A stretch of 34,963 bases of DNA, taken from positions 1-34,963 of the forward strand of contig CALVIA010000001.1 of NCBI GenBank assembly GCA_944329255.1, read 5' to 3'. Positions 8,201-34,963 of this stretch are shown in pieces. Each line of letters starts with the position of its first letter. Positions within the stretch are counted from its first letter, which is position 1. The notes below the pieces were generated by a model. It made no database searches and was not told the origin of the DNA. It worked only from the letters and a program-made list of their open reading frames with translations. This DNA is from an uncultured Bacilli bacterium (GTDB lineage Bacteria; Bacillota_I; Bacilli_A; RF39; UBA660). A program made the position numbers and the translations under genes.

Positions 8201-8224
8201 AATATCACCATAAATTATTATAAC

Positions 8225-8253
8225 AAAAAAGAGTGTCGTTTGACACTCTTTTT
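8225..8253 (-). terminator. Rho-independent terminator after the Cys-repeat gene
   Basis: GAGTGTC (8231-8237), loop, GACACTC (8242-8248). The minus strand continues with TTTTTTGTTA. It lies directly after the stop at 8252-8254. Confidence 0.65.
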
Positions 8254-10231: not shown

Positions 10232-10361
10232 ACAAATCCCCCTCTTTCATTTGATTGCCCTATATTATACACATTTTTTTTATTTTGTCAACTATTGTAC
10301 AAAAATGGGCTTTTTTTTATATTTTCTCTTTATATATTATATAATTAATATAGGTGGTATT

Positions 10362-12089
10362 ATGAAAGAAAGAAAAAAGAAAAATATTATTCATAAAGTA
10401 TTTAGTACTTTAGCTTTATTAGTGAGTTTATCATACTTAACTTATAAAATAGTTAATATTGATTCTATATTAAACAACATTATAATTTTATCTATCCCGT
10501 TGTTTATATTTTTAATTAGTTTAATTATATTTATATTTTCTTTAAAATCTGAAAATAAAAAATTATTTATTATAACTTCATTATTGTTAATTATTTTTAC
10601 AGGATTTTATTTTATAAATGATTTAAATATAATAACTCTTCCAAAGGAAGAAGTACTTCTATCTTATAAAAATAAATCTTATCTTGATTTTAAAGAATGG
10701 GCTGATAGTAAAAATATAAAAATTGTAGTTGAATATGAAAATAGTGATACTATTGAAAAAGGTAAAATAATAAGATTAGACAAAAATGAAGGGACTTTAG
10801 TAAAAGATATTAAAACGATAAATGTAGTTGTATCTGATGGACCAAATCCCGATAAACTATTAATTATTCCAAGTATGTTAGGATGGAACGTTGACGATGT
10901 TATTACTTATGTTAAAGAAAACTTTATGACTAATGTAATAGTAAATTTTGAATTTTCAACTAGTGAAAAAGATATTGTTATTAAACAAAGTATAAATGGT
11001 GAAATAAGAAGAAGCGAAGAATTGACTATTACTGTTTCTTTAGGAAATGAAAATGATGTAATTAAGAACGTTGAAATGATTGATTTATCTAACAAAACCT
11101 TATTTGAAGCATCTATATGGTTAAAAAGAAATTGCATTAATTATGAATTAAATTATGAATTTAGTGATAATATAGACAAAGATATAATTCTAAATCAAAG
11201 TATAAAAAGTGGTGAAGAAGTAAATATTGATGAAAATGTTATAACATTGACTGTATCTAAAGGAAAAGCTATTACAATAGTAGATTTTACTAAAATGGAT
11301 GTTAATGAAGTAACTGACTGGATAATTAAAAATGATTTAAAAATAAAGTTTGAAGAAATATATGATGAAAGTATTGAAACAGGAAAAATAATTAAGCAAG
11401 ATATAGAAGTTGGTACAAAAGTAGCGACTAATACTTTGATTACAATTACTATATCAAGAGGTCAAATAAAAATGGAAAAATTTGAATCTTTATATGAATT
11501 TAAAGAATGGGCAAATAAATATAATATAAAATATAATGAATCTTATGAATATAGCAATAGCGTAGCAAAAGGTAAAGTTATTAGTTATTCATATAAAGAG
11601 GATGAAATTATTGATCCTGATGATGTTGTATACGTTAAAGTATCGTTAGGAAAAGCTATTACAATTCCTTCTTTTATAGGTAAAAGCAAATCAGAAATAC
11701 AAAATACATGTAATAGTTTAGGTTTAAGATGTTCATTTACAACAGGAACATATACTAAATATAATGCAAATATTGCATATGCACAATCAAGAACTGCTGG
11801 ATCAAAAGTAGCATCTGGTTCATCTATCACAATAACATTAAGTAAAGGAATTCCTACAACAAGTAAATTATATATTAATGGAAGTTTAACTATATCTGGT
11901 AGCGCTGATACTACTATATCGTTATTAACCGATTTTTTTAATAAGAATTATCCTGGAGTTAATTTTATATTTAAAAAAGTTAAGCATAATACGTTAAATA
12001 ATGGAATGATATCCGATAATTCTCCTACTAATGCTGGAAGTTCTGTAACCCAAGGAAAAACTTATACTATATATATAGTTTCAAATTAA
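10362..12089 (+). CDS. Membrane protein with about six PASTA-like modules and no kinase or PBP domain
   Basis: I prefer the ATG at 10362 (MKERKKKN), which has GGTGG upstream. The N-terminal hydrophobic segments are followed by repeated modules of about 65 aa ending in V.VS.G / ITIS.G (VVVSDG, ITVSLG, LTVSKG, ITISRG, VKVSLG, ITLSKG), as in PASTA domains. This is the only plus-strand gene in the window. Confidence 0.75.
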   Translation: MKERKKKNIIHKVFSTLALLVSLSYLTYKIVNIDSILNNIIILSIPLFIFLISLIIFIFSLKSENKKLFIITSLLLIIFTGFYFINDLNIITLPKEEVLLSYKNKSYLDFKEWADSKNIKIVVEYENSDTIEKGKIIRLDKNEGTLVKDIKTINVVVSDGPNPDKLLIIPSMLGWNVDDVITYVKENFMTNVIVNFEFSTSEKDIVIKQSINGEIRRSEELTITVSLGNENDVIKNVEMIDLSNKTLFEASIWLKRNCINYELNYEFSDNIDKDIILNQSIKSGEEVNIDENVITLTVSKGKAITIVDFTKMDVNEVTDWIIKNDLKIKFEEIYDESIETGKIIKQDIEVGTKVATNTLITITISRGQIKMEKFESLYEFKEWANKYNIKYNESYEYSNSVAKGKVISYSYKEDEIIDPDDVVYVKVSLGKAITIPSFIGKSKSEIQNTCNSLGLRCSFTTGTYTKYNANIAYAQSRTAGSKVASGSSITITLSKGIPTTSKLYINGSLTISGSADTTISLLTDFFNKNYPGVNFIFKKVKHNTLNNGMISDNSPTNAGSSVTQGKTYTIYIVSN

Positions 12090-12093
12090 AAAT

Positions 12094-12130
12094 AAAAATC
12101 TACACGATACGTTCGTGTAGATTTATTTTT
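12094..12130. terminator. Bidirectional rho-independent terminator between the convergent PASTA gene and gatB
   Basis: ATCTACACGA (12098-12107), loop TACGT, TCGTGTAGAT (12113-12122). A-runs on one side and T-runs on the other give T-tails on both strands. Confidence 0.7.
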
Positions 12131-12141
12131 ATTTAAATATT

Positions 12142-13572
12142 TTATAAATTATTGTTTTTTCTATTTTCTAATTCTTTTATTAATAAATCATTAGTAATTT
12201 TTGGATTTGCTTGTCCTTTTGTTTCCTTCATTACTTGACCCATTAAAAATTTAATACTTCTATCAAGACCATTTTTATAATCTTCAACTGCTTTTATATT
12301 ATTATTTATTACATTATTAATTATATTTAATAAATCATTACTATCACTTATTTGTTTTAAACCTTTTTTATTAATTATATCTTGAACATTTCCTTTGTTT
12401 TCTAATAACTCACTAATAATTTCTTTTGCAATTTTAGAAGATATTTCATTTTTATCTAATTTATCTACTATATCTTTTATATTTTCTTTTGTTACATTTA
12501 ACTCGTTAAATTTCATATATCTTTTATTCATATAAGATAAAATATCTGCCGTTAATATATTTGCACATAATACTGGATTAACGTTTTCTTCTATTAATTC
12601 GTTTAATAAAATATTTAAATCCATATTTTGAATAAGTGATTTTATAGTTACATCGTTTATTCCTAATTTTTTATATTTTTCTTTTAATTCGTTTGGTAGC
12701 ATTGGAATCGTTTTTTTAATGCATTTAATCCATTCATCGTCTATAATAATTTTAGGAATATCTGGTTCTGGAAAGTACCTATAATCATTACCTGTTTCTT
12801 TTTTTCTCATTAATATAGTAGTACTTGTTTTATCATCCCATCTTCTTGTTTCTTCAGAAATTTTTATACCTTCTTCTATTAATTTTGTTTGTCTTTTTAT
12901 TTCGTATAAAATGCTTTGCGCTACAGCACTTATTGATCCAATATTTTTTATTTCTACTTTAGTGCCTAATTCATCGGTTTCACTTAATGAAATATTTAAA
13001 TCGCATCTCATACTTCCTTCTTCTATTTTTACATCACTAATATTTGAATATAATAATATTTCTCTTAAATTTTCTAAATATAAAACTGCTTCTTTTTCAT
13101 TTGATATAACAGGTTTAGTAACAATTTCTATAAGTGGAATTCCTGCTCTATTAAAGTTTAATAAAGTATGATTGTTTTCATGAATACTTTTACAAGTATC
13201 TTCTTCCATATGGATTTCTTCAATTTCAATATTCTTTTTTATACCATCATATTGTACTTCTATATAACCATTTCTTCCTATTGGAGTATTATTTTGAGTT
13301 ATTTGAAAATTTTTAGGAATATCTGGATAAAAATAATTTTTTCTATCAAAAAATATTTCTTTTGTAATATCACAATGTAAAACTAATGCTGTTTTTATCC
13401 CCAAATCTAGTAAAGCTTTATTTAAAGTAGGTAAAGTTCCTGGATATCCTAAATCTATTTCGTTAATCATTTTATTAGGTACTTCTCCATATGTATTTTT
13501 GGAAGGAGAAAAAGCTTTACTATTAGTTTTTAATTCACAATGTACTTCTATTCCTATAGTTGGTTTTAACAT
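12142..13572 (-). CDS. gatB: Asp/Glu-tRNA(Asn/Gln) amidotransferase subunit B
   Basis: N-terminus KPTIGIEVHCELKTNSKAFS, plus DLGYPGTLP, NRAGIPLIEIVT, RCDLNISL and a C-terminal YqeY-like tail FLMGQVMKETKGQANP. Overlaps gatA by 7 nt. Confidence 0.95.
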   Translation of the reverse strand: MLKPTIGIEVHCELKTNSKAFSPSKNTYGEVPNKMINEIDLGYPGTLPTLNKALLDLGIKTALVLHCDITKEIFFDRKNYFYPDIPKNFQITQNNTPIGRNGYIEVQYDGIKKNIEIEEIHMEEDTCKSIHENNHTLLNFNRAGIPLIEIVTKPVISNEKEAVLYLENLREILLYSNISDVKIEEGSMRCDLNISLSETDELGTKVEIKNIGSISAVAQSILYEIKRQTKLIEEGIKISEETRRWDDKTSTTILMRKKETGNDYRYFPEPDIPKIIIDDEWIKCIKKTIPMLPNELKEKYKKLGINDVTIKSLIQNMDLNILLNELIEENVNPVLCANILTADILSYMNKRYMKFNELNVTKENIKDIVDKLDKNEISSKIAKEIISELLENKGNVQDIINKKGLKQISDSNDLLNIINNVINNNIKAVEDYKNGLDRSIKFLMGQVMKETKGQANPKITNDLLIKELENRKNNNL

Positions 13573-16244: not shown

Positions 16245-16278
16245 TAAAAAATAAAAAGACAACTAAAAAGTTGTCTAA
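16245..16278 (-). terminator. Rho-independent terminator after the DUF2207 gene
   Basis: The minus strand reads AGACAAC-TTTTTA-GTTGTCT followed by TTTTATTTTTT. The hairpin contains the TAG stop at 16275-16277. Confidence 0.55.
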
Positions 16279-18125
16279 AATCTTCCACCAGAAGATCCTC
16301 CTCCACCGGAGAAACCTCCACCACCTGAGAATCCTCCTCCAAATCCTCCTCCTGAAGATGAAGATGATTCTGCTATTTTAGCATTGGCAGCTGAAATAGC
16401 ATCATTTACAGAAGAAATGATACTTCTATTTATTGCATTATTTATTATTAAATAATCATACATGTTAATATCATGATCTTCTATATTTGGTATTTTAATT
16501 TCCATTTGTTTTTTTAATTTATCTGCAATTTTAAAAACATGGGCATAAACTAGATATTTTTCCCAAAGAGCAATTTCAGGTAATTCTTTTTCACTAAAAT
16601 TTCCAAAATCATTTAAAAAATTTTTTAATGCTTTCCATTTAGAATATAATTCACAGCCTTCTTTTGTTCTTTTTTTTGCAGTAAAAATATAAATAGCTAA
16701 TATAATTGAAATAAAAATAGCAAAAAAAGATAAAAATGTTGATACATTTAATATAAATTGTAATAAAAATGGAGTTAAAAGAAATAAAATAATTATTATA
16801 CTAATTTCCTTTTTTTCGTAAAATTTTAAATCAATAGCTCTATTTTTACTTTTTTCTATCCATTTATTATAATTTTTTATAAATTTTCTTGCCTTTGCTT
16901 CGGATTTGCTGGAATCTTTCAAATCTGATAATATAAAATAATTATCGTTGCCAAAATCTCTTATAAGCCAATCTCTTAAATCAAGTTCATTTTCTGTTAA
17001 TGGTTCTTTTAAATTATCATTATTTAATATTAATTTGTAATCTTTTTCATTTTTCTTAAATAATCCTTTACTTTTTGTATTTATCTCCTCTATTAAAAAA
17101 CCTTTTTTATAAATTATATTTAATAAAGCTGATGAAAGTCCATTTGTTGTAATTCTTTTAGTCATTAAATATTCTATTGTTTCTGGAGAATGATTAGAAG
17201 GAAAATCTCTATAATATTTTTGATTAAAATTAGATTTATACTCTTTATCATATTTGTTATAAAATTTATATACAAATATTAAACATGCAATAATCCATGT
17301 ACTCATGCTAATATTTAAAAATAATTTTTTAGTTTTCTCTTTTTTTTCTAATTCCTCATAATATTTTTTTAATTCTTCTCTTTCTTTATTTGCTTCATCT
17401 GCTTTTTTAGTTTCTTCTTCTATAATAACATTTAACATATCTTTATTTGTTTGTTTAGTTGTATTTACAAGATTTTTATCAAAAGTTAGTCTTATATCAA
17501 ATGCAGTATTTGAATAATAATCTTCAATCTCAAAAACAACATATTTTTTTTCATCATCTATATCTATATTTCCCCATAATGGTCCATGAGCCCATGCTCT
17601 TAAATCATTTGCATTATTAGGAAGTATTACTTTGATTGATACATTATCTAAGTCTTCATTAAATTCATTTGATAACATATTAAGTCTTAGTTCATTTATG
17701 TCGTTATGCCCTACAACAATATTCTTTAAAATATATTCGACATAAAAAGCTTTATTCCTATCACTAGGATTATATAACATTAAACTTATTCCATTATATA
17801 ATTCTTCTTCTGTATATTTTAAATAATCTCCTTTATTTGCATTACTTGTTTTTGTAAAACAAGTTCCTATATCATTTAATAAATTATTCTTATTTGACTC
17901 ACATATTTTTAATATTTCTATATCTTCAGCACTATAAATTTTATTTTCATCAAAATATTTAAAGATTAAATTTAAATTAAATCCGTTATATTTACCATCT
18001 AAAGCAATTGCCTCTTTTACTTTTATATCTCCATTTTCTAATATTTCTATTTCTTGTTCCATACTACTTGCATTTACTATAAATGGAAATGTAAATAGTA
18101 GTAATAAAATAAATATTTTTTTCAT
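16275..18125 (-). CDS. DUF2207-family membrane protein
   Basis: Signal peptide MKKIFILLLLFTFPFIVNASS, then a large extracytoplasmic domain and internal TM helices. Ends in the characteristic Gly/Ser-rich tail SSSSGGGFGGGFSGGGGFSGGGGSSGGRF. Sits directly downstream of lemA, the usual pairing. Confidence 0.8.
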   Translation of the reverse strand: MKKIFILLLLFTFPFIVNASSMEQEIEILENGDIKVKEAIALDGKYNGFNLNLIFKYFDENKIYSAEDIEILKICESNKNNLLNDIGTCFTKTSNANKGDYLKYTEEELYNGISLMLYNPSDRNKAFYVEYILKNIVVGHNDINELRLNMLSNEFNEDLDNVSIKVILPNNANDLRAWAHGPLWGNIDIDDEKKYVVFEIEDYYSNTAFDIRLTFDKNLVNTTKQTNKDMLNVIIEEETKKADEANKEREELKKYYEELEKKEKTKKLFLNISMSTWIIACLIFVYKFYNKYDKEYKSNFNQKYYRDFPSNHSPETIEYLMTKRITTNGLSSALLNIIYKKGFLIEEINTKSKGLFKKNEKDYKLILNNDNLKEPLTENELDLRDWLIRDFGNDNYFILSDLKDSSKSEAKARKFIKNYNKWIEKSKNRAIDLKFYEKKEISIIIILFLLTPFLLQFILNVSTFLSFFAIFISIILAIYIFTAKKRTKEGCELYSKWKALKNFLNDFGNFSEKELPEIALWEKYLVYAHVFKIADKLKKQMEIKIPNIEDHDINMYDYLIINNAINRSIISSVNDAISAANAKIAESSSSSGGGFGGGFSGGGGFSGGGGSSGGRF

Positions 18126-18134
18126 ATTTCCTCC

Positions 18135-18162
18135 AAAAAAAACTTACATAAAGTAAGTTTTA
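18135..18162 (-). terminator. Hairpin plus T-run between lemA and the DUF2207 gene (terminator or attenuator)
   Basis: The minus strand reads AAACTTAC-TTTAT-GTAAGTTT followed by TTTTT. This runs straight into the GGAGG RBS of the DUF2207 gene. The stem abuts the lemA TAA stop. Confidence 0.45.
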
Positions 18163-18714
18163 AAATGATACCTTTGGTGCTTCTTTTTCTCCTTCAGTTA
18201 CTTCAAAGTACTTCATAGGTTTAAATCCAAACATTGATGCAACTATATTCGAAGGAAACATTTCTAATTTATTTGTATATAACAATACTGTATCATTATA
18301 AAATTGTCTGGATATAGCAATTTTATCTTCACAATCTTTTAAATCTCCTTGTAATTGCATAAAATTATTATTTGCTTTTAATTCAGGATATGATTCAGTA
18401 AGAACCATAAGTCTACTTAATGCTTTATTTAATTCACCACTAGCTTCCATTTCTTCTTCTGGAGTAGTAGATGATTTAAATTTATTTCTTGCATTAATTA
18501 CTGCTTCTAATGTTTCACTTTCATGCTTAGCATATCCCTTTACAGTTTCTACTAAATTTGGTATTAAATCAAATCTTCTTTTTAATTGTACATCAATTTG
18601 TGCCCAATTATCTTTTACTTTATTTCTTAAAGAAACAAGTGCATTATATGTCCCAATTAAAAATAAAACGACAATAACTATTATAGCTATAACTATCCAT
18701 ATCCATAATTTCAT
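18160..18714 (-). CDS. lemA: LemA family protein
   Basis: One N-terminal TM helix, then the canonical LemA core YNALVSLRNKVKDNWAQIDVQLKRRFDLIPNLVETVKGYAKHE...ESYPELKAN. I prefer the second ATG (18714), which is 7 nt after GGAGGG. Confidence 0.9.
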   Translation of the reverse strand: MKLWIWIVIAIIVIVVLFLIGTYNALVSLRNKVKDNWAQIDVQLKRRFDLIPNLVETVKGYAKHESETLEAVINARNKFKSSTTPEEEMEASGELNKALSRLMVLTESYPELKANNNFMQLQGDLKDCEDKIAISRQFYNDTVLLYTNKLEMFPSNIVASMFGFKPMKYFEVTEGEKEAPKVSF

Positions 18715-18735
18715 ATACATCCCTCCTATGCTAAA

Positions 18736-18753: not shown

Positions 18754-20355
18754 CTATTTTTTCTTAAAATTTAATAAAATTTCAAATAAATTCTTTTTTT
18801 CTTCATTTTTTGGTTTATTCTCTTTGTTTATTAATTGATTTATGTTTTTATTATATTTTAAACTATTCTTCCCTTTTTCTTTTAAATTTAAAGCATTAAA
18901 TGTTTCTAATTCCATATTTAATTCTAATAAATAATCTCCGTATTTTTCTAATTCTGGAGTATCTAATATTTTTAATTTTTTATTTTTATTTAAAAAAGAA
19001 TTTCCAATATATTTTATTTTTTCTAAATATAATTCATTCAACTCTTTATTATTATACATAAAAAAATCTTCAATTTGTTCTAATTTAGGCATAATAATTT
19101 TATTAATAGATTCATTAAAATATAAAAAATATGATTTTATTTTTTTTATATTTGGCAAAAAAATACTTTTTAGTTGCGTATTAAAATATAAAAATGAATC
19201 TCCTATTTCTTCAACTAAAGGAAGTTCTATTTTTTTTAAAATTGTATTATCATTTAAAAATCTATTTTTTATTATTTTAGTTTTTTCTAATATTATTTCC
19301 TTTAAATACTTTGAACGAGACAAAAAATTATCTTCTATGATTATTGAATAATTGTCATACATGGATATAATTCTATTATTTTTATCTAATTTTATAATTA
19401 TATTTTTTTCATCATTTAAATAAATTATTACTCTTTTACCATCTTCTATATTTTGCACTTCTATTTTTTTTATATTATCATTAATATTTACAAAGCCATC
19501 TTTTAACTCCTCATCTAATAAATTAACTTTTTTATTTTTTAAATCTAATACAAAGTAATCCATTATCAAATATTTTTCATCATACTTTTTTGGTGTTAAA
19601 TTATTTAAAATAATATTATTTTGGCAATAATAAATTTTATTTATTAAATAGTTATATTTATAGTATTTATTATCTTTTCCAATTACATAACCTGGTATAT
19701 CAAAATCACTTTTTATTATACGTTGTTTAAGTCCATAATGTACATCAAAGCTTTTGGTAAGTCCTCCTATAATGTTATCTAAATTATTTGAAAATGTAGC
19801 ATCAGGATTTCTTACCTTATGATTATATCTATTTTTTATAGACAATATGTGATACTCATCTTTTGTAAATTGAATGCTTATCACACTTGTTCCATATTCA
19901 TCATCTCTTATTGGATTAGTAAAATCTGCTCTTTTTATTTCATCAGCATTATCTTTTACTGCAAAGAAAACATATGAATCTTCTAATCTTTTTTCTCTAA
20001 AAGTACATAATTCTTCTGTATCATGGTAATATTTTCTAAATGATTGTATTTCGTCTTCAGTTTCGCACTTGTACAATGTATATCCAGCTTCTTTTAATAA
20101 CTCTTCTGGAGTTTTTAAAGTACTAGTTTTTACTTTTTCTTTTGTATAAAAGAAACTGTTAATAAAATTTACAAATTTACTTTCCAAATTATTATTTTTA
20201 ATATCAATATATAGGTCTCTTGATACATCAAAATTTTTAATTAATGTTTGTGATAATAGTCCTGGATAATTATCTAAAATTGTAGGAAAAGATTTTCTAC
20301 AAAAACGCATCATTTCTTCACCATATTTTTTCTTTATTATTTTTAAATCATCCAT
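18754..20355 (-). CDS. LRR paralog 1 (last in the operon): conserved unknown N-domain, about 8 LRRs of 22 residues, and a K-rich tail
   Basis: 533 aa. N-terminus MDDLKIIKKKYGEEMM..., with the invariant family blocks LCTF, VFFAVKDN, DEYGTSVISIQFTKD, LSIKNRYNH, DATFSNNLD, YKYNY and YYCQNN. C-terminal repeats follow L..L.LP.L..IG..FL..N. No signal peptide or TM segment. Confidence 0.9.
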   Translation of the reverse strand: MDDLKIIKKKYGEEMMRFCRKSFPTILDNYPGLLSQTLIKNFDVSRDLYIDIKNNNLESKFVNFINSFFYTKEKVKTSTLKTPEELLKEAGYTLYKCETEDEIQSFRKYYHDTEELCTFREKRLEDSYVFFAVKDNADEIKRADFTNPIRDDEYGTSVISIQFTKDEYHILSIKNRYNHKVRNPDATFSNNLDNIIGGLTKSFDVHYGLKQRIIKSDFDIPGYVIGKDNKYYKYNYLINKIYYCQNNIILNNLTPKKYDEKYLIMDYFVLDLKNKKVNLLDEELKDGFVNINDNIKKIEVQNIEDGKRVIIYLNDEKNIIIKLDKNNRIISMYDNYSIIIEDNFLSRSKYLKEIILEKTKIIKNRFLNDNTILKKIELPLVEEIGDSFLYFNTQLKSIFLPNIKKIKSYFLYFNESINKIIMPKLEQIEDFFMYNNKELNELYLEKIKYIGNSFLNKNKKLKILDTPELEKYGDYLLELNMELETFNALNLKEKGKNSLKYNKNINQLINKENKPKNEEKKNLFEILLNFKKK

Positions 20356-20366
20356 AATAATACATC

Positions 20367-20651
20367 CTAGCCGTATAATCTTTTTAATCTAATATTTTTA
20401 TTATTTTTCATTATAACAAGTATTTCGTCTTCACTTGGATTTTCTCTTCCATATTTTGAATCTAGAGCTCCGAAAGATGCCACAAAATTATTAATATCTT
20501 TTATTAATTTATCAGACATATATAATACATCATTTACTTCAATTTTATCTATGATATCGTATAATTCTATATGAAAAAAATATTCATTATTTTCTTCATC
20601 CTTTACAAAACAATTATTTTTTTCAATTTTTTTTACTATTAATTTTTTCAT
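20367..20651 (-). CDS. 94-aa hypothetical protein embedded in the LRR array
   Basis: Its ATG at 20651 lies 1 nt after the TAA of paralog 2 (TAATATG). Its TAG stop is 11 nt before the paralog 1 ATG. The product MKKLIVKKIEKNNCFVKDEENNEYFFHIELYDIIDKIEVNDVLY... is hydrophilic, with no motif I recognise with confidence. Confidence 0.6.
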   Translation of the reverse strand: MKKLIVKKIEKNNCFVKDEENNEYFFHIELYDIIDKIEVNDVLYMSDKLIKDINNFVASFGALDSKYGRENPSEDEILVIMKNNKNIRLKRLYG

Positions 20652-20652
20652 A

Positions 20653-22392
20653 TTATTTAATACTTCCTTTATTTAATTTTATGTTATCATTTACTGGTAA
20701 AATCCTATATCCTTTTTTTTGTAAACAGGGAGTATAAAACTCATAGAGTGATGTGTTTGATGGCAAAAAATCACTACCAATTTCAATTAAGTTAGGGGCA
20801 TAGAACCTAATTAACAAATCATTTTCTAATAAAAAATAATTACATATAATTTCAACTTTTGGTAAAACTAATTCTTTCAATGAAACATTTTTGCCTAAAA
20901 AATATGAACCAATTTCTTTTACATTAGGTAATATTACTGTTTCTAATATTTTATTTTTAAACATGAAACTTTCATCAATTTGTTCTAATTTTGGAAAATA
21001 TATTCTGTACATACTATTATTGCTATCTAAAAAATTTTTACCTACTCTTTTTAATTTATTGGCGTTTATATATTCTAAAAATTCATTTGAAAACAAAAAT
21101 GAGTTTTCTATTTTTTCTACATTTGGTATATATATTTTTTTCAAACTTCTATTTTTATACATAAAGTCAGATCCAATTTCTCTTAAATTTGGAAAATCTA
21201 ATTGTTCTATATTATTATCATTATATAAAAAACAATTTTTTATTATTTCTAAATTATATAATGAATAATTTTCTAAATGTTCATTTGAATATAAAAAATT
21301 ATTTCCTGCTATTCTTAAATTTGGCAAATATAATTTTTTTATATTTTTTACATTTGATAAATAATTGTCATCAGCTTGAAGTAGTTCTGTATCTATTAAC
21401 GATATCATGCGATTTGCATCATCAAGTTCAAAAATTAAATCGTCCTTTTCATCTCTTTTTAAAATGATTTTTTTTATTTTCCCTTGTTTTTCAATAATAA
21501 TATTATTAATTTTACCTATAGTTTCCTGAAAAGAGTCATCTACCCATTCATCATATAATCTAATTTCTTTTTTTTGAAAATCTAAAATAAAATATTCAAA
21601 AACTAAAATTCTTTCATCATATTTTTTTACATCGAAATTATCTATTATTATATTATTAGGACAATAATATATATTATCATGTTCATAATTATACTTATAA
21701 TATTTTCCATCATTCGAAAGAACATATCCAGGTAATTCAAATTCAAGATGAACATATTTTTGCTTTAATCCATAATATTTTTCAAAGCTTTTAGTAAGAC
21801 CTTCTATAATATTATCCAAATTATTAGAAAAAGTTGCATCTGGATTTTTAACTTTGTGATTATATCTATTTTTTATAGATAAAATATGTTCTTCATCTTT
21901 TGTAAATTGAATGCTTATTACACTTGTACCATATTCATCCTGTCTTTCTGGTCTATTAAAATTTTCTCTTTTAATTTCTTCAACATTATCTTTTACTGCA
22001 AAAAATACATAATAATTTTCTAATCGGTTTGAATTAAAAGTACATAGTGCTTCATCATATCTATAATATTTTTTAAAAGATTGAACTTCATCTTCAGTGT
22101 TACATTTATAAAGAATATATCCTGCTTCCTTTAATAACTCTTCTGGGCTTTTATTTTTATCTGTTTCTTGTTTTTTTTGAATTTCAATAAAACTATAAAT
22201 ATATCTTCTAAAATTTAACTCTAACCCATATTTTTTTAAATCATTATATAAAAGATGATTTGGATAAAAATGAGAAAGCATAATTTCAGATAATAAACCA
22301 GGTTTATTATCTAAAATTGTTGAAAATAATTTTCTACATAAATGCATCATATTTTCGCCATATTTCTTTTTTATAATCTTTAAATCATCCAT
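20653..22392 (-). CDS. LRR paralog 2: conserved unknown N-domain plus about 10-11 LRRs
   Basis: 579 aa with the same invariant blocks as the other copies. Its ATG overlaps the TAA of paralog 3 (TAATG at 22390-22394). Confidence 0.9.
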   Translation of the reverse strand: MDDLKIIKKKYGENMMHLCRKLFSTILDNKPGLLSEIMLSHFYPNHLLYNDLKKYGLELNFRRYIYSFIEIQKKQETDKNKSPEELLKEAGYILYKCNTEDEVQSFKKYYRYDEALCTFNSNRLENYYVFFAVKDNVEEIKRENFNRPERQDEYGTSVISIQFTKDEEHILSIKNRYNHKVKNPDATFSNNLDNIIEGLTKSFEKYYGLKQKYVHLEFELPGYVLSNDGKYYKYNYEHDNIYYCPNNIIIDNFDVKKYDERILVFEYFILDFQKKEIRLYDEWVDDSFQETIGKINNIIIEKQGKIKKIILKRDEKDDLIFELDDANRMISLIDTELLQADDNYLSNVKNIKKLYLPNLRIAGNNFLYSNEHLENYSLYNLEIIKNCFLYNDNNIEQLDFPNLREIGSDFMYKNRSLKKIYIPNVEKIENSFLFSNEFLEYINANKLKRVGKNFLDSNNSMYRIYFPKLEQIDESFMFKNKILETVILPNVKEIGSYFLGKNVSLKELVLPKVEIICNYFLLENDLLIRFYAPNLIEIGSDFLPSNTSLYEFYTPCLQKKGYRILPVNDNIKLNKGSIK

Positions 22393-24095
22393 TATTTAGC
22401 TCCTTTGCTTATATTAAAATTAAACCAGTTATTATTTAATTTTGGGACATTAATTTCTCTTAAGCATATGACTGAATCTAAAAAATATATCCCTACATCA
22501 TATAAATTTGGGGCATTAAAAACTTCTAATTTAGTGTTACACATTAAAAATTCATTACCAACTGTTTCCAAATATGGTGCATTGAATTCTTTTAACTCTA
22601 TATTTTCTTTTAAAAACATATTTTTTATTTCCTTAATATTAGGTATGTAAATATAGTTTAATTTTTTATTATCAGTGAGAAATGGTGAATTAATATAAAG
22701 AAGTGATGGTAAATATAATTCTTCTAATTCTGTATTATGTGGCAAAAACCATGTATTTATTATTTTTAAATTTGGTGCAATAAATTGTTTTAATTCTCTA
22801 TTACAAAATAATATACCATTATTTATTTCTTCTATTTTACCTAAATTTAAATATTTTAAATTTTTATTATTCATCAAAAATTCATCATCAACAAATTTTA
22901 TATTAGGTAAATATAAAGTTGTAAGTAAAGAATTTTTTAAAAATGATTTACCTGCATATTCCAAGTTATATATATCAATATTTTCTATACTAGATAACTT
23001 TATAAAGTTATCCCCAGTTTTAATTAATTTTGGCATATTAACATATTTTATATGTTTTACATTGCTTAAAAAATTATTATCAACATATTTTGTAATCTCA
23101 TCATAATAAGAAGTTATATTATTAGTTTTATTTGTTTTTATTACTACATTATTTAAATTATTAAAATTTATAATAACAATTTTTCCTAATTCATTATTTT
23201 CTATTTGAATATTTTTTATATCATTAAATAAATTAGTAAAAGAATCATTTATTCTTTTATCATATAATTTTACAGTTTTGTTTTTTATATCAATTATAAA
23301 ATAATCGATTAAAAAATATTTTTCATCTAATTTTATTGGGTTAAAATTATCTATTATTATATTATTAGGACAATAGTATATATTATTTATTTCATAATTA
23401 TATTTATAATATTTATTATCATTAGCAAATACATAGCCGGGTATTTCAAAATTTTTATGAATATTTTTTTGTTTCATACCATAATATTCTTCAAAACTTT
23501 TTGTTAATCCCTCAATAATATTATCAAGATTATTTGAAAATGTTGCATCTGGATTTGATACAGAATGATTATATCTATTTTTTATTGATAATGTATGATT
23601 ATCATCTTTTGTAAACTGAATGCTTATTACTGAGGTTCCATATTCATCTTGTCTTTTTGGATATAAAAAATTTTTTCTTCTTAATTCATTTGCATTTTCT
23701 TTCACTGCAAAAAATACATAATTTGTATCTAGTCTTCCTCCTATAAAAGTACATAACTCTTCATTTTCACTATAATATTTTTTAAAAGATTGAATATCAC
23801 TTTCATTTTTACATTCGTACAAAATATATCCACATTCTTTAAGAAGTTCTTCTGGAGATTTATCTACTCTAACTAATTCTTTTTCTTTATCTAAAAAACT
23901 ATATATATATGTAGCAAAAGATGTTATTAAATGATTTTCTGTTATATCATTATATAAAAATTTTGATGGTTCAAAATGAGATAGTAAAATATTACTTAAA
24001 AGTCCCTCTTCTTCTAAAAGTGTAGGAAATAATTTTCTACACAAATGCATCATGTTTTCTCCATACTTTTTCTTAATTATTTTTAAATCATCCAT
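22392..24095 (-). CDS. LRR paralog 3: conserved unknown N-domain plus about 10-11 LRRs
   Basis: 567 aa with the same invariant blocks. GAGGT RBS in the 19-nt gap after paralog 4. Confidence 0.9.
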   Translation of the reverse strand: MDDLKIIKKKYGENMMHLCRKLFPTLLEEEGLLSNILLSHFEPSKFLYNDITENHLITSFATYIYSFLDKEKELVRVDKSPEELLKECGYILYECKNESDIQSFKKYYSENEELCTFIGGRLDTNYVFFAVKENANELRRKNFLYPKRQDEYGTSVISIQFTKDDNHTLSIKNRYNHSVSNPDATFSNNLDNIIEGLTKSFEEYYGMKQKNIHKNFEIPGYVFANDNKYYKYNYEINNIYYCPNNIIIDNFNPIKLDEKYFLIDYFIIDIKNKTVKLYDKRINDSFTNLFNDIKNIQIENNELGKIVIINFNNLNNVVIKTNKTNNITSYYDEITKYVDNNFLSNVKHIKYVNMPKLIKTGDNFIKLSSIENIDIYNLEYAGKSFLKNSLLTTLYLPNIKFVDDEFLMNNKNLKYLNLGKIEEINNGILFCNRELKQFIAPNLKIINTWFLPHNTELEELYLPSLLYINSPFLTDNKKLNYIYIPNIKEIKNMFLKENIELKEFNAPYLETVGNEFLMCNTKLEVFNAPNLYDVGIYFLDSVICLREINVPKLNNNWFNFNISKGAK

Positions 24096-24114
24096 ATGTT
24101 ACCTCATATATCAT

Positions 24115-25653
24115 TTATAACTTTTTTTCTCCATCTTCATCTAAACTTGCCATATAACCTATACCTTTTTCAGTTAAACTATCCAATTGAATATTTTTTA
24201 AATTTTTTGCATTTAAGACAAAACTATTCCCTACTTTTTCTAATTTAGGGGCAAATATATTTTCGATTACTTTATTTGAACTCATAAAACTATCCCCTGC
24301 TTGAGTAATTTCAGGAAGACTTAATGTTGTTAACTTTTCATTAAATTCTAAAAAGCTATCTCCAACTTCTTCTAATTTTGGAAAATTTATTGTCTTTAAG
24401 TTCCTTGCAATTCTTAAAAAATTATTTTTTACTTTTTTTAAGTTAGGAAAAGAAACTTGCTCTATTTTCTCTGCATAATCAAGAAACAAATTTCCAGTTT
24501 CTTCTAATAGAGGCATATCAATATTAGATAAAGAAGAACAAGACTCTAAAAAACTATCTCCAACCTTTTTTACATTAGGAAAATACACTTCTTCAAGACC
24601 ATTTATTCCAGCTAAAAAGTTATCCGGACATTCTTTTAATGTTTCGTCGTAAATAGTTTTTATTTTATTGTCTTTACCAGCAAATAAAATAATATTATCA
24701 CCATTTTCCTTAAATAATATTATTCTCTTTCCTTCTTTATTATTTTCTATTTGAATATTTTTTATATTATTTAACCTATCTGTAAATTTATCACACAATA
24801 ATTGTTCATCATAAGGAATAAATTTTTTATTTTTTAAATCAAACAAAAAATAATCAATTAATAAATATTTTTCATCTAATTTTTTTGGATTAAAATTATC
24901 TATTATAATGTTATTTGGACAATAATATATATTATTTATTTCATAATTGTATTTATAAAATCTTCCATCATTTGCTTGAACATAATCTCTTAAAAATATT
25001 CCCTTACTATCATGTTTTTGTATCATACCATAATATTTTTCAAAACTTCTTGTTAAACCTGGAATAATATTATCTAGGTTGTTTGAAAATGTTGCATCAC
25101 ACATTGGTACTGTATGATTATATCTATTTTTAATTGATAAAGTATGACTTTGATCTCTTGTAAACTGAATGCTTATAACACTTGTGCCATATTCATCTTC
25201 TCGTTTTGGGGTAGAAAAATTTTCTCTTTTAATATCATCCACATTATCTTTAACTGCAAAAAATACATGACAAGTATCCAATCTATTCCCCCTAAAGGTA
25301 CATAGTTCTTCTCCATTTTTATAATATTTTTTAAAACTTTGTATATCTTCTTCACTTTTACATTCATAAAGAGTATATCCAGCTTCTTTTAATAATTCTG
25401 TTGGGGTTTTATAAACCTCAGGTAATGGCATTTCTTTTACATCAACAAAATTATAAATAAAATTTGAAAATTCTCTTTCCTTTCCTTGTTCAATAATATC
25501 TTCATACAATTCTTTTGACGGATTAAAATGATTTAATAATAATTCTGATAATAGTCCAGGATTATTATCTAGTATTGTAGAAAATAATCTTCTACATAAA
25601 TGCATCATATTTTCACCATATTTTTTCTTAATAATTTTTAAATCTTCATTCAT
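24115..25653 (-). CDS. LRR paralog 4: conserved unknown N-domain plus about 8 LRRs
   Basis: 512 aa, starting MNEDLKIIKKKYGENMMHLCR. It carries the family blocks but has local deviations: PMCDATF where the others have NPDATF, and KGIFLRDYV where they have F[ED][IL]PGYV. AGGTGA RBS upstream. Confidence 0.9.
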   Translation of the reverse strand: MNEDLKIIKKKYGENMMHLCRRLFSTILDNNPGLLSELLLNHFNPSKELYEDIIEQGKEREFSNFIYNFVDVKEMPLPEVYKTPTELLKEAGYTLYECKSEEDIQSFKKYYKNGEELCTFRGNRLDTCHVFFAVKDNVDDIKRENFSTPKREDEYGTSVISIQFTRDQSHTLSIKNRYNHTVPMCDATFSNNLDNIIPGLTRSFEKYYGMIQKHDSKGIFLRDYVQANDGRFYKYNYEINNIYYCPNNIIIDNFNPKKLDEKYLLIDYFLFDLKNKKFIPYDEQLLCDKFTDRLNNIKNIQIENNKEGKRIILFKENGDNIILFAGKDNKIKTIYDETLKECPDNFLAGINGLEEVYFPNVKKVGDSFLESCSSLSNIDMPLLEETGNLFLDYAEKIEQVSFPNLKKVKNNFLRIARNLKTINFPKLEEVGDSFLEFNEKLTTLSLPEITQAGDSFMSSNKVIENIFAPKLEKVGNSFVLNAKNLKNIQLDSLTEKGIGYMASLDEDGEKKL

Positions 25654-25689
25654 ACTTTCACCTGCTTACACAATTTTTTATTCTTTTTT

Positions 25690-27471
25690 TCATATGTTTT
25701 TATTAAATGGAATAAAATTATTACCTTTACTCTCTAACAATGGTAAATTTAATGTACTAATATCATAATTATAATACAAAAAATCATTACCAACAATCCT
25801 AAGATTTGGCGCATAAAAATCACTTAAATTAAAAGCTGAATTTAAAAATCCATTCCCAACAATTTCTAAACTATCCAAATTTATTGTTTTTATTTCATTG
25901 TTAGAAAACATAAAGAAATTACCTACATATTTTAATTTTTTTAATGAAATTTCTTTTATCTTTGATAATGCCATAAAAAAGTCTTGTACTTTTTCTAATT
26001 CATCTAAATTTAGCATGACTAATTTTTCATTATTATACAAAAAAGAATTTCCTATGTTTTTTACTTTTGGCATAAATAAAAATTGCAAACTATTATTTTC
26101 TCTTAAAAAATTGTTTCCTATACTAACAGCGTTTGGTAGTGATAAATATTCAATATTTGAATTGTGATACATAAAAGAGTTTCCTATAGATACTACATTT
26201 GGAATTGCAATTTTTTTTAATATTTTATTGGAAGGTAAAAAAGAATCTTCAATTACTTTTAGAAATGGAAGAGATAACTCCTTTAATCTTAAATTGCTAT
26301 TTAAAAAATTAGATTTAATTGTTTTTAAATTTATCATACTTACTTCTTCTAAGTCTTCATTCGAATATAAAAATCCATGTCCTATTTCCTCTAAATTTGG
26401 CATATTTATATATTTTAAACTTTCATTATAAGTTAAATAATTATCACCAATAGTTTTAATATTAAAATCACTAACAGCAATTAATCTATTTTTATCATCT
26501 AAAATTAAATCAGTTGATTTTTCGTTCATTTTTATTTTTATTTTTTTTGTATTATCACAATTATATATTTCTATATTTGTAATATTATTAAACTGTTCTA
26601 CAAAATAATCTTTTATGTCTTTATCATATAATTTTACTTTTTTTTCTTTTAAATCTATTAAAAAGTAATCTAATAATATGTATCTTTCATCTAATTTGTA
26701 AACTGTAAAATTATCAATAACAATGTTATTTGGACAATAATATACATTGTTTATTTCATAATTATATTTATAATGTCTACCATCATTTGCCATAACATAT
26801 CCCGGAATTTCGAATCTTACTTGTTTAAATTTTTGAATTAAATTATATTCTTTTTCAAATGCTTTTGTAAGTCCTGGTGTAATTGCATCAAGATCATTTG
26901 AAAAAGTTGCATCTGGATTTTTTACAGAATGATTATATCTATTTTTTATTGATAAAACATTTGAATCATCTTTTGTAAATTGAATGCTTATTACTGAAGT
27001 ACCATATTCATCTTCTCTTCTTGGATTAGTAAAATCTTCTCTATTTAATTTATCAGCATTATCTTTTATAGCAAAAAAAACATAACATTTATTTAATCTA
27101 TTGCCTTTAAATGTACAAAGTTCTTCTCCTTCATAATAATACTTTTTAAATGCTTGTATATCTTCCTCACTCTTACATTCATATAAAGTATAACCTGATT
27201 CTCTCATTAATTCATTAATTGTTTTATTAACAACAATTTCTTTTTTAAATATACTTTTATCTATAAAAGAATATATATAACTTCTAAATAAATTTTCTAA
27301 TAAATTTTCTGTAATATCATAATATAAATGTTTTGATGGATTAAATTTAGATAATAATATATGAGATAATAATCCTGGTTTTATATCCATTAAAGTGGAA
27401 AACAAATCCCTACATAAATGCATCATATTTTCTCCATATTTTTTCTTTATTATTTTTAAATCCTCATTCAT
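25690..27471 (-). CDS. LRR paralog 5 (first in the operon): conserved unknown N-domain plus about 12 LRRs
   Basis: 593 aa, starting MNEDLKIIKKKYGENMMHLCR. AGGTGA RBS and a near-consensus promoter lie immediately upstream. It has the longest LRR tract, with 12 IG..F[LM] units counted by eye. Confidence 0.9.
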   Translation of the reverse strand: MNEDLKIIKKKYGENMMHLCRDLFSTLMDIKPGLLSHILLSKFNPSKHLYYDITENLLENLFRSYIYSFIDKSIFKKEIVVNKTINELMRESGYTLYECKSEEDIQAFKKYYYEGEELCTFKGNRLNKCYVFFAIKDNADKLNREDFTNPRREDEYGTSVISIQFTKDDSNVLSIKNRYNHSVKNPDATFSNDLDAITPGLTKAFEKEYNLIQKFKQVRFEIPGYVMANDGRHYKYNYEINNVYYCPNNIVIDNFTVYKLDERYILLDYFLIDLKEKKVKLYDKDIKDYFVEQFNNITNIEIYNCDNTKKIKIKMNEKSTDLILDDKNRLIAVSDFNIKTIGDNYLTYNESLKYINMPNLEEIGHGFLYSNEDLEEVSMINLKTIKSNFLNSNLRLKELSLPFLKVIEDSFLPSNKILKKIAIPNVVSIGNSFMYHNSNIEYLSLPNAVSIGNNFLRENNSLQFLFMPKVKNIGNSFLYNNEKLVMLNLDELEKVQDFFMALSKIKEISLKKLKYVGNFFMFSNNEIKTINLDSLEIVGNGFLNSAFNLSDFYAPNLRIVGNDFLYYNYDISTLNLPLLESKGNNFIPFNKNI

Positions 27472-27489
27472 ATTATCACCTACAATAGA

Positions 27490-27518
27490 ATTATACCATT
27501 ATTAATTTTTAATTGCAA
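27490..27518 (-). promoter_or_regulatory. Near-consensus SigA-type promoter driving the LRR paralog array
   Basis: The minus strand reads TTGCAA (27518-27513), a 17-nt spacer, then TGG-TATAAT (TG-extended; -10 at 27495-27490). It lies about 18 nt before the RBS and ATG of paralog 5. Confidence 0.6.
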
Positions 27519-27550: not shown

Positions 27551-28471
27551 TTATTTAGTTAATATTTTATCAATTTTAGTATTTTTTAGTTTTAACTCAT
27601 AATTATGTATTTCTTCTGCTATTTTATCTTCACTTTTTTCTTTTATTTTTTGAAGTAAATTTAAAAGTTCAATTCTTTTTAAATTTAATGTATTTTTTTC
27701 TTTATTTAAACAAATTGTCCTATCATAATTAGATATAGTAGCTGAATTAATATTAATTTCTTTACAATTTACATTTAAATTCTGATAGTCATTAGAATTT
27801 ATTTTAATATTATCAATTGCATTTATATTACTAAGTTTATTTGATAATATTCTTTTAGAATGTAATTCAATTTTATTAGCTAAAAGACATGAATTATTTA
27901 AAATCAAATCATCTAAAACTTCAATTCTTAAAATTAATCGTTTTGAAAGAAAACCAACTGACGAATTATTAATTTGCATTTTTTTTGCAATAATTGTTAA
28001 ATTATTTGTAAAATAATTGTTATTAAGTATTTTACATTTATCTATTATTATTTCATTTGCTTTTAATGATGTATACCCAAATTGATTAATTTCAGAGTTT
28101 TTTATAATACATTTATCATAAAATTGTGTACATAATCCATAATTAAATTTACAATTATCAAAAATAATTTCACAATTATCATATCCATAAACATTTACTT
28201 CATAATCAAAACATTTGTCTTTTATAATATATATAATTTTTTTATTCAAATTATATTTTTTTGCTAAATTAATATTTTTTTCTAAAACCCCACAATGAAA
28301 AAAATATTTTATGCTTTCAGAAGCTTTAAAACAATTTTTTTCTTTATATCTGTCGTCTACATAACATACTAATTTATCATCAAATTCTTCAACTTTCCCT
28401 AAATTATTTGTAATTTCTAATTTAACATAGTTTCTAATGTGGTTTAATAAAAATTCTTTTGCTTTAATCAT
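27551..28471 (-). CDS. 306-aa hypothetical protein with Asn/Ile/Cys-rich repetitive (beta-solenoid-like) core and C-terminal coiled coil
   Basis: RBS GGGGGA 5 nt before the ATG, and a TG-extended -10-like TGTGATAAT upstream. Short repeats of the I.I.NC.I type recur (CEIIFDNCKF, KCIIKNSEI, NEIIIDKCKI, IDNIKINSN, CKEININSATI). The tail is heptad-like: LNLKRIELLNLLQKIKEKSEDKIAEEIHNYELKLK. No signal peptide. Confidence 0.7.
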   Translation of the reverse strand: MIKAKEFLLNHIRNYVKLEITNNLGKVEEFDDKLVCYVDDRYKEKNCFKASESIKYFFHCGVLEKNINLAKKYNLNKKIIYIIKDKCFDYEVNVYGYDNCEIIFDNCKFNYGLCTQFYDKCIIKNSEINQFGYTSLKANEIIIDKCKILNNNYFTNNLTIIAKKMQINNSSVGFLSKRLILRIEVLDDLILNNSCLLANKIELHSKRILSNKLSNINAIDNIKINSNDYQNLNVNCKEININSATISNYDRTICLNKEKNTLNLKRIELLNLLQKIKEKSEDKIAEEIHNYELKLKNTKIDKILTK

Positions 28472-33857: not shown

Positions 33858-33892
33858 TTAAAAAAGTATGATTAATTTAATCATACTTTTTT
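33858..33892 (-). terminator. Rho-independent terminator after the radical SAM gene
   Basis: AAAAAGTATGATTAA / TTAATCATACTTTTT is a long perfect palindromic stem flanked by A and T runs. It lies immediately after the TGA stop at 33892-33894. Confidence 0.65.
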
Positions 33893-34878
33893 CATGATAT
33901 TTGGTGCTTAGTTTTCCAATTTTCAAATTCTATTTTTTCTTTTTCTGTTTCAATTTCCTGATGATAATAATGTTTCGTAAATTCTCCACACGAACTACCT
34001 ATTTCTTTTCCAGGAGGAGAATATGTTTTAATTCTAAGATTTGGAACTTGTTTTAAGATTTCTTTTATCCATAAATCTTCATTATCACTTCTTTTTAAAT
34101 CATTAATTGGATTAAATCTTATAAATTTAATTGTAATATTATATTTCTTTAGCAATTTACATATTTTATTTAATTCATTTATACTATCATTGACATCTTT
34201 TATTAAAGTATAATGAATTTCAACAGGATCATTTGTTCTATGCAATTTAATATATTCATTCATTATTATATTGTTTGATTGTAATACATTTCTATAATTT
34301 CCTAAATATGATAATGCCTCATCAACTGTTACATTTGTACTTGGAATTAAATCAAATCTTTCTTTATCAAATGGAGTATGCATAGAAAAATGTATTTTTA
34401 ATGGAATATTTAGTTTATTTACTAATTCTGTAAGCTTTAAAATATTTTTATTGGGCATCATAGTTGCTAATGCATACCCTATACTTTCATATTGAAATCT
34501 ATCTCTGATTGATTTTTCCATTTTATAAATATCTAGAAGTAAATTTATATTTAATAATGGTTCTCCAACACCCATAAAAGATATAAGTAATTTTTTCTTG
34601 GATGTTCTCTTTTTTCCATTTACACTTAATGTTTGAATTAAACATTTTATAAAATCTTTTGAATTAATTGGAATCATAGCTTTGTTTAAACCTTTATTTG
34701 TTAAATGACACATTTTACATCCAAGATTACAAAAATGATGTGTTGGAACACATACAACATCAATATTTTTTTTATTATCAAGCAATGTCATTTCTATTAT
34801 TTTATTATTTCCTATATCAAATACAGTTTTTATAGAATTATCGGAAAAGTCTTTAAAAACTCCTAATTTTTTTATCAT
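33892..34878 (-). CDS. Radical SAM enzyme of the RlmN/Cfr type, lacking the usual N-terminal accessory domain
   Basis: CVPTHHFCNLGCKMC gives the CxxxCxxC cluster plus the upstream Cys equivalent to RlmN C118. Also present are FMGVGEPLLN, HFSMHTP...IP, IHYTLIKDVNDS, IKFIRFNP and a C-terminal GKEIGSSCGEF (compare DIDAACGQL). I prefer the ATG at 34878 (GGGGTG 6 nt upstream) over the track's GTG at 34887. Confidence 0.7.
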   Translation of the reverse strand: MIKKLGVFKDFSDNSIKTVFDIGNNKIIEMTLLDNKKNIDVVCVPTHHFCNLGCKMCHLTNKGLNKAMIPINSKDFIKCLIQTLSVNGKKRTSKKKLLISFMGVGEPLLNINLLLDIYKMEKSIRDRFQYESIGYALATMMPNKNILKLTELVNKLNIPLKIHFSMHTPFDKERFDLIPSTNVTVDEALSYLGNYRNVLQSNNIIMNEYIKLHRTNDPVEIHYTLIKDVNDSINELNKICKLLKKYNITIKFIRFNPINDLKRSDNEDLWIKEILKQVPNLRIKTYSPPGKEIGSSCGEFTKHYYHQEIETEKEKIEFENWKTKHQIS

Positions 34879-34963
34879 ATCAAACACCCCATTTGCTTTA
34901 AATATTTATTTTACATATAAAAAATTATCATTATAAAAGTTAGATTTTTTATTTAATTCATTT

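Follow-up and report, generated by a model that had tools for sequence, protein, structure and literature searches.

In this work, a tandem array of five paralogous genes was analysed in a 34,963-nucleotide stretch of DNA (the window) from an uncultured Bacilli bacterium (assembly GCA_944329255.1, contig CALVIA010000001.1, positions 1 to 34,963). Each gene encodes a protein with a constant N-terminal head of about 215 amino acids, a beta-rich connector of about 120 amino acids and a tail of 22-residue leucine-rich repeats (LRRs) of the BspA/TpLRR type. What is new is the domain family of the head, and what is known is the BspA-type LRR scaffold on which it sits. We tentatively read the array, with a little less than even confidence, as a cytoplasmic repertoire in which a constant catalytic or docking head is combined with variable LRRs that set the targets and with a dedicated small partner protein.

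The head could not be placed in any family, as had already been stated in the first-pass annotation, which was made from the sequence of the window without database searches. No match was found for the heads of the five paralogues in Pfam or NCBIfam, and none for the head in PADLOC or PHROGs. When 80 family members were scanned singly against Pfam, no family was detected for the head; RNA_pol_Rpb5_N alone recurred, in 7 of the 80 at an expectation value (E) of 0.011 or worse. Profiles built from 5 and from 33 sequences retrieved no sequence relative from the PDB (best E 0.13). The structure of residues 1-340 of paralogue 3 was predicted with AlphaFold2 from an 80-sequence alignment, giving a predicted local distance difference test (pLDDT) of 92.8 and a predicted template modelling score (pTM) of 0.84. 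In the model, five short helices (residues 2-65) are followed by an alpha/beta core (81-205) and this in turn by a beta-hairpin-rich region (221-332), and the best-conserved N-terminal stretch, DLKIIKKKYGExMMHLCR, lies within residues 1-65. In a Foldseek search of 350,542 PDB chains, the best match of the whole head had an E of 0.2 and a template modelling score (TM-score) of 0.16. The core (residues 76-216) was also modelled alone, because the beta-rich part could have masked it in the fold search; this model reached pLDDT 94.7 and pTM 0.88, and its best PDB match had an E of 1.5, with TM-scores of 0.24 or less. The best match of the whole head in BFVD was an uncharacterised phage protein (E 0.012). 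As modelled, the head is thus a well-defined domain without detectable relative in the sequence and structure libraries searched, and no known housekeeping family came out of the profile and structure searches. Such a confident model without sequence or structural relative makes the head a candidate new fold or enzyme family.

Across 80-150 diverse members, the head residues Y90, C95, E112, R140, R148, Y152, S155, R174, Y175, and N176 are invariant, and C115, R121, D150, and Q160 are nearly so. There are four conserved Cys in the head. Invariant Cys, His, and acidic residues had been read from the five paralogues; Cys and Glu were borne out across the family, but the His (H177) is less than 90% conserved in the 150-sequence alignment, one of three broader alignments, and a Cys-His catalytic pair is doubtful for this reason. 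A protease triad C115/H177/N188 was rejected on the same conservation of H177, together with the lack of any papain-like or NlpC fold match. A PD-(D/E)xK nuclease was considered because of the predicted alpha-beta-beta-beta-alpha-beta topology, D150, the S170-x-K172 motif, and the weak Rpb5_N matches, and it was rejected since the Foldseek list for the isolated core contains no nuclease. Three weak BFVD matches (E 0.15-0.44) suggested a PcfJ-like head, which was discarded after comparison with the pCF10 PcfJ prototype (hhalign probability 0.1). Fragments of PARP catalytic domains recur in the Foldseek lists for head and core, only weakly (E 0.4-7.9, TM-score 0.22 or less), and by eye the invariant residues do not follow the R-S-E or H-Y-E order of ADP-ribosyltransferase/PARP folds. 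We hypothesize that the invariant set (one Glu, three Arg, three Tyr, Ser, Asn, and one Cys) either lines a pocket that accepts an anionic or nucleotide-like ligand or makes up a conserved surface for docking, and that the near-invariant Arg, Asp, Gln, and second Cys would join the predicted pocket set. The head would do one conserved biochemical job, namely catalysis on, or docking to, a conserved cellular component.

Within the window, the first ~290 residues of the five paralogues are 59-69% identical in pairwise alignment, close to the half to two-thirds that had been estimated by eye, and the blocks LCTF, VFFA[VI]K[DE]N, DEYGTSVISIQFT, LSIKNRYNH, DATFSN, YKYNY, and YYC[PQ]NNI were confirmed in the alignment to be identical in all five. 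The identity falls to 23-48% over the next ~50 residues and is 34-40% in the tails. This intermediate region had been described as a semi-conserved linker of about 45 amino acids; the region itself is real, but it models as a confident four-strand beta element and not as a flexible segment. The description of the tails as divergent 22-residue LRRs was accurate, since the repeats of the paralogues keep a period of exactly 22 residues, and ~5-10 of them were detected in each copy. The tail of paralogue 4 matches Pfam LRR_5 (PF13306) at 54.3 bits (cut-off 27.7) and is the only one of the five to pass; the other four tails lie below Pfam detection, share the 22-residue consensus and are 34-40% identical to the tail of paralogue 4. 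LRR_5 is matched by 38 of 80 diverse family members. The repeat consensus from 1,626 family units is xx[IL]xLPN[VL]xxIG[ND]xFLxxNxxL, and variability is concentrated at positions 1, 2, 4, 9, 10, 13, 14, 17, 18, 20, and 21. The diversified solenoid may pick the protein target, and if so, the array would therefore represent a repertoire of specificities. Cell-wall-binding tails were considered as a sign of an extracellular location and were rejected, with one partial LysM match in one protein and weak matches to ZoocinA_TRD (best E 0.0024, 4 of 80). The LysM match lies after the head in a single member (P0137, residues 293-319; 27 of 43 profile positions, E 5.6e-7), which could be a chimeric assembly.

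The strongest functional clue of the locus is a gene for a protein of 94 amino acids, situated 1 nucleotide after copy 4 and 11 nucleotides before copy 5. The locus had been described as a five-gene array; all five minus-strand paralogues were recovered with the lengths and positions reported for them, but this sixth gene inside the array had been overlooked. By clustering the open reading frames of 70 loci (the window and 69 fetched related loci), a protein of ~87-103 amino acids was obtained as the sole enriched neighbour, with 28 copies in 27 loci, including the 94-amino-acid one of the window. In 26 of the 28 cases, its gene directly follows a family gene, with gaps of -32 to +28 nucleotides and frequent 4-nucleotide overlaps. 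In alignment, its C-terminus is invariably L-[KQRT]-R-x-Y-G followed by the stop, and the R, Y, and G of this RxYG are invariant in all 22 aligned small proteins. No relative of the small protein was found in Pfam or the PDB. Its family comprises 107 clusters, of which ~25 are proteins of ~177 amino acids that carry an extra N-terminal domain before the same domain and the same C-terminus; in four of them, the extra domain matches DUF1292 (PF06949), and R, Y, and G are conserved in these fusions as well. The association with family genes also holds for distant members and for DUF1292 fusions: in one locus (L070), a fusion gene overlaps a head-LRR gene by 4 nucleotides, and in another (L073), a distant member of 85 amino acids lies 21 nucleotides upstream of two head-LRR genes. 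No functional information on DUF1292, UPF0473, or YrzB was found in the searchable literature. A kinship of the small protein with the beta-hairpin region of the head was rejected (hhalign probability 0.2), and so was the idea that the copies bearing a small gene form a distinct subfamily, since the enrichment was only weak and explicable by genome relatedness. In L070, four near-identical opposite-strand genes of ~93-106 amino acids (MTKKSYLxDNK..., 6000-12226) form a second small repeated family, interleaved with unannotated plus-strand genes beside the head-LRR gene and its DUF1292-small fusion partner.

We suggest that the small protein would be a dedicated partner of the head-LRR proteins, as a regulator, an inhibitor, or a substrate, and its conservation together with the invariant C-terminal Gly tail offers a concrete handle for experiments. 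Its position directly downstream, often overlapping, is also that of immunity genes, and one small protein could serve several copies, given how well the heads are conserved, so a module with the head as toxin and the ~95-amino-acid protein as immunity protein or antitoxin was weighed and judged improbable. The small gene is missing from ~60% of the fetched loci and from an 11-copy array. Furthermore, a conserved N-terminal module joined to a variable binding solenoid is the reverse of the arrangement in polymorphic toxins, and no trafficking domain and no Pfam toxin family was matched. An invariant C-terminal RxYG is not known as a feature of immunity proteins.

The family extends far beyond the window. 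A HMMER search of 1.84 billion cluster representatives gave 1,272 head clusters at 50% identity, 755 of them with E <=1e-30, and the head starts at residue 1-21 in all 150 matches listed. At 90% identity, more than 3,298 head-family clusters were obtained by a word-indexed search and 2,151 with a profile of the most divergent branch; PF13306 is the only precomputed Pfam domain in the 90% clusters, and the only names are 'leucine-rich repeat protein' and 'hypothetical protein'. No public source examined names the family beyond these terms, despite its ~1,270 clusters. All genomic matches come from animal guts (human, rabbit, chicken, ruminants) and are metagenome-assembled genomes, with no cultured isolate among them. 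The hosts are AT-rich gut Bacillota, labelled Bacilli, 'Tenericutes', 'Mycoplasma sp. CAG:611', Candidatus Onthousia, Candidatus Caccenecus, Candidatus Onthoplasma, or, in some bins, Clostridia. The family is restricted to abundant, uncultured gut lineages known only from metagenome bins. The layout that had been noticed in the window, a constant head with a diversified LRR tail amplified in tandem, holds family-wide. The genomic outlay amounts to 9 to >20 kb on tandem copies, and the single complete chromosome among the family matches is just 1.46 Mb. The function of these proteins would inform how reduced-genome gut bacteria deal with hosts, partners, or invaders.

The location of the proteins was addressed across the family. 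A signal peptide or LPXTG sorting signal was found in 0 of 270 and 0 of 114 retrieved members (384 in total), so the alternative that homologues carry secretion or anchoring signals lost from the copies of the window was not borne out. Five weak segments at the transmembrane threshold, all in the set of 270, lie inside LRR tails, and none resembles a real transmembrane helix. The first-pass annotation was right that signal peptide, transmembrane-like segment, LPXTG, lipobox, and Walker A are all missing from the five paralogues. Upstream of each start, the reading frame stays open for only 1-11 codons, and therefore a signal peptide missed through a wrongly called start is not possible. The DUF2207 protein in the window, used as a control, has a canonical Sec signal, which shows that such signals can be recognised in this organism. 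In Firmicutes, exported proteins are depleted in Cys. The Cys content of the family averages 1.7% (head 1.70%, tail 1.60%), which is ~2.5 times that of the neighbouring envelope proteins (DUF2207 0.65%, LemA 0.54%, PASTA protein 0.64%) and within the range of the cytoplasmic enzymes of the window (0.6-2.3%). Moreover, the N-terminus of five retrieved DUF1292 fusion proteins has no hydrophobic signal-like stretch. Judging from these sequence features, the head-LRR proteins probably act in the cytoplasm, and signal-less BspA-type LRR proteins call into question the habit of annotating such repeats as surface adhesins by default.

The proteins could still be BspA-like adhesins for surface or host interaction that leave the cell by a non-classical route, such as an exporter reading the ultra-conserved N-terminus, vesicles, or lysis (cf. 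LytA, endolysins); this we consider rather unlikely. Conservation is highest in the first ~25 residues of the protein, the tails are of the BspA/TpLRR type, and known BspA-like expansions in mucosal microbes mediate host contact, according to published accounts. The gut-restricted hosts, known only from metagenome bins, would suit such a role, as would the variable copy number and the synonymous divergence of part of the array, which reaches ~4-10 times the value of the flanks and in this resembles contingency loci. On the other hand, neither signal peptide nor LPXTG occurs in any of the 384 members, and there is no convincing transmembrane helix, though the organism uses canonical Sec signals. 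The Cys content is cytoplasm-like with the four conserved head Cys, no secretion gene is enriched beside the arrays, the DUF1292-small fusions retrieved are likewise without a signal-like N-terminus, and the only cell-wall-binding match is the partial LysM in one protein.

Tandem arrays recur in the 69 related loci, with 11 copies in one (L013), 10 in another (L016), and 5-6 in several others, the maximum being 11 family copies in one 20-kb locus. The copies share one strand in all 24 multi-copy loci and are separated by a median of 40 nucleotides. The flanks of the arrays differ between loci and contain housekeeping genes (pcrA, polA, murC, obg, dnaN, gyrB), and the window, too, belongs to the core chromosome (PFOR, tsf, rpsB, priA, gatCAB, comK, DUF2207/LemA, pheST, frr). 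The array layout of one strain of the same species (L075) is identical to that of the window. In a second one (L076, 8183-11707, compared with 22392-27471 of the window), paralogue 2 is missing, leaving four copies instead of five, and the flanks are otherwise collinear. The ratio of nonsynonymous to synonymous divergence (dN/dS) between strains is 0.03-0.44, in heads and tails alike; therefore, the genes are functional and under purifying selection. The tails had been called diversified, and as a statement about selection this fails, since between strains the dN/dS gave no sign of positive selection on the LRR tails. In L076, the synonymous divergence of the gene upstream of the array, copy 1, copy 3, and the head of copy 4 is 0.16-0.33, compared with 0.03-0.06 in the flanks, which points to recombination or allele exchange at the array locus. 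Recent gene conversion was rejected because the paralogue heads are 65-83% identical in DNA without long identical tracts, and an invertible promoter was rejected because inverted repeats flanking the promoter were not found.

The gene directly upstream of the array (27551-28471, (-)) encodes a Cys-rich protein of 306 amino acids (12 Cys, 3.9%) without a signal peptide and without a match in Pfam, NCBIfam, PADLOC, or PHROGs. It is as hyperdivergent between strains as the array (dN 0.053, dS 0.158, compared with 0.03-0.06 in the flanks) and is not conserved beside arrays elsewhere.

Intracellular sensing of invaders had been put forward as one role for the array. The proteins would then be cytoplasmic immune sensors against phages or mobile DNA, in which the LRR senses an invader protein and the head is the effector, as in an NLR without the NTPase. 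A signal-less protein in which a constant head is joined to a variable, sensor-like solenoid would suit this role, and so would tandem amplification, strain-level change in copy number, and locus-specific hyperdivergence. The context gave it no support, and we regard it as quite unlikely. PADLOC returned no match for any of the seven locus proteins, and the neighbours are housekeeping genes and not defence islands. Among 50,697 phage records, 72,556 plasmids, and 2.9 million viral contigs, none carries the head, and therefore no arms-race counterpart is visible. Moreover, the tails are under purifying selection between strains, and the proteins offer neither an NTPase switch nor a recognisable effector fold; a PD-(D/E)xK fold was tested and found unsupported.

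Several points weigh against our proposal of a cytoplasmic repertoire with a conserved head, target-setting LRRs, and a small partner. There is no nameable biochemical activity or binding partner, and the mechanism is argued from architecture alone. The small gene occurs in only ~40% of the fetched loci and once per array, and therefore the small protein is no obligatory 1:1 subunit. The missing recognisable signal is also compatible with an unfamiliar export route or release by lysis. Finally, BspA-type LRRs are classically extracellular, and the hosts are mucosal organisms, according to PMC2843621 and PMC4206474. It is also conceivable, if unlikely, that the head of novel fold is an enzyme or adaptor which modifies or delivers many intracellular or invader proteins chosen by the LRRs, with the ~95-amino-acid RxYG protein as tag, cofactor, or regulator. 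If true, the logic of F-box-LRR, IpaH-like, or NLR-lite proteins would have a bacterial counterpart made of unrelated parts.

The positions of the features of the locus are summarized in Table 1. The intergenic gaps in the array are -1 to 36 nucleotides, and a promoter-like site precedes copy 1. This site is known from its agreement with the consensus only. In this DNA of 22% guanine plus cytosine, such agreement shows no enrichment relative to shuffled sequence, so the site is consistent with an operon and no proof of one. An AT-rich hairpin with a run of eight T lies just before the site, directly after the gene upstream of the array. The single operon that had been assumed for the five paralogues is thus plausible. 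The transcription unit may also extend past the array to LemA and DUF2207, because the sole terminator-like hairpin lies after these two genes. By comparing the neighbours in the related loci, LemA and DUF2207 were not found to be conserved partners of the head-LRR family.

Table 1. Features of the head-LRR array and its surroundings; positions are those of the window.
Feature	Position	Strand	Description
Paralogue 1	25690-27471	(-)	593 amino acids; head and ~10 LRRs
Paralogue 2	24115-25653	(-)	512 amino acids; head and ~6 LRRs; missing in strain L076
Paralogue 3	22392-24095	(-)	567 amino acids; copy used for modelling; stop overlaps start of paralogue 4 by 1 nucleotide
N-terminal helices (paralogue 3, residues 1-65)	23901-24095	(-)	five short helices; pLDDT 91-98 over residues 1-60 and 85 for 61-70
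Alpha/beta core (paralogue 3, residues 76-216)	23448-23870	(-)	four strands; carries the family-invariant residues
Connector (paralogue 3, residues 217-340)	23076-23447	(-)	beta-hairpin-rich (YKYNY, YYCPNN), with four-strand element leading into the solenoid
LRR tail (paralogue 3, residues 341-567)	22395-23075	(-)	22-residue period
Paralogue 4	20653-22392	(-)	579 amino acids; small gene 1 nucleotide downstream
Companion small gene	20367-20651	(-)	94 amino acids; C-terminus LKRLYG-stop; between copies 4 and 5
Paralogue 5	18754-20355	(-)	533 amino acids; head and ~6 LRRs; Lys-rich C-terminus
Promoter-like site	27490-27518	(-)	TTGCAA, 17 nucleotides, TG-TATAAT; best minus-strand match, in the 79-nucleotide gap upstream of copy 1
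LemA; DUF2207; terminator-like hairpin	18160-18720; 16275-18125; 16276-16257	(-)	only terminator-like site found

Some other genes of the window were also observed to be unusual. The gene at 8252-10231 (-) encodes a protein of 659 amino acids with one N-terminal hydrophobic segment and 39 Cys (5.9%), for which no match was obtained in Pfam (E<=1e-5) or NCBIfam (E<=0.01). Ribosomal protein S2 (4871-5881, (-)) has a C-terminal extension that matches Rho_N (residues 302-335, E 8e-10), an unusual rpsB fusion. The only long plus-strand gene (10215-12089, (+)) has a doubtful TTG start and encodes four PASTA repeats; the match to the Stk1/PknB PASTA-kinase model is confined to its C-terminal part (155 bits, cut-off 450), and the kinase domain was not detected. 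The product of the gene at 33892-34887 (-), which has a GTG start, is an RlmN/Cfr-like radical-SAM protein scoring 91 bits against a cut-off of 290, and is either a divergent RlmN or the result of a mis-called start.

Among known systems, the BspA-like/TpLRR proteins of Tannerella (BspA), Candidatus Mycoplasma girerdii, and Trichomonas vaginalis share the repeat class (LRR_5) and the expansion into many paralogues in host-associated microbes. According to the respective accounts, Candidatus M. girerdii has 26 BspA-like genes, of which 23 encode a C-terminal transmembrane segment and 5 a signal peptide (PMC4206474), and in T. vaginalis 911 TvBspA genes are treated as candidate surface proteins, more than 190 of them with transmembrane domains (PMC2843621). 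The known bacterial BspA examples are surface proteins, whereas neither signal peptide, LPXTG, nor convincing transmembrane helix was found in 384 members of the head-LRR family. Furthermore, the N-terminal module of ~340 amino acids (head and connector) is universal in the present family, has no Pfam match and is not mentioned in the excerpted BspA accounts, and a putative dedicated small partner is a further feature here.

The NLR/STAND sensors are cytoplasmic and combine an N-terminal constant module with a C-terminal LRR, as is proposed here. They differ in that no Walker A motif was found in the five paralogues, no NTPase match in Pfam among 85 members, and no PADLOC match. The internalins of Listeria, likewise a Bacillota lineage, resemble the present proteins in their 22-residue LRRs and in forming multigene families. 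They are equipped with a signal peptide, an N-cap, and an Ig-like inter-repeat domain and are anchored through LPXTG or GW; a search of the head-LRR proteins for signal peptide and LPXTG found neither. The early view that the five proteins are neither internalin-type adhesins nor STAND NTPases is thus upheld by these comparisons.

With regard to the small partner, genes for E1, E2, or JAB proteins were not noticed among the neighbours of the arrays, for which no specific scan was made. Ubiquitin-like modifiers are likewise small and have a C-terminal Gly directly before the stop after basic residues (LKRxYG here, LRLRGG there); they adopt the beta-grasp fold, and by eye the sequence pattern of the small protein looks all-beta and not like a beta-grasp. 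For the head-LRR proteins themselves, the IpaH/SspH/SlrP effectors (LRR with the NEL E3 ligase) and the eukaryotic F-box-LRR proteins are similar in logic. No NEL or F-box match was found in Pfam among 85 members. In IpaH, the NEL domain with its catalytic Cys lies C-terminal to the LRR, so the domain order here is reversed; IpaH-type effectors belong to hosts with a type III secretion system, of which there is none for the head-LRR family, and the head fold has no PDB match. The likeness is one of analogy, in that these multigene families combine, as the present array may do, a constant catalytic or docking module with a variable LRR that picks the protein target.

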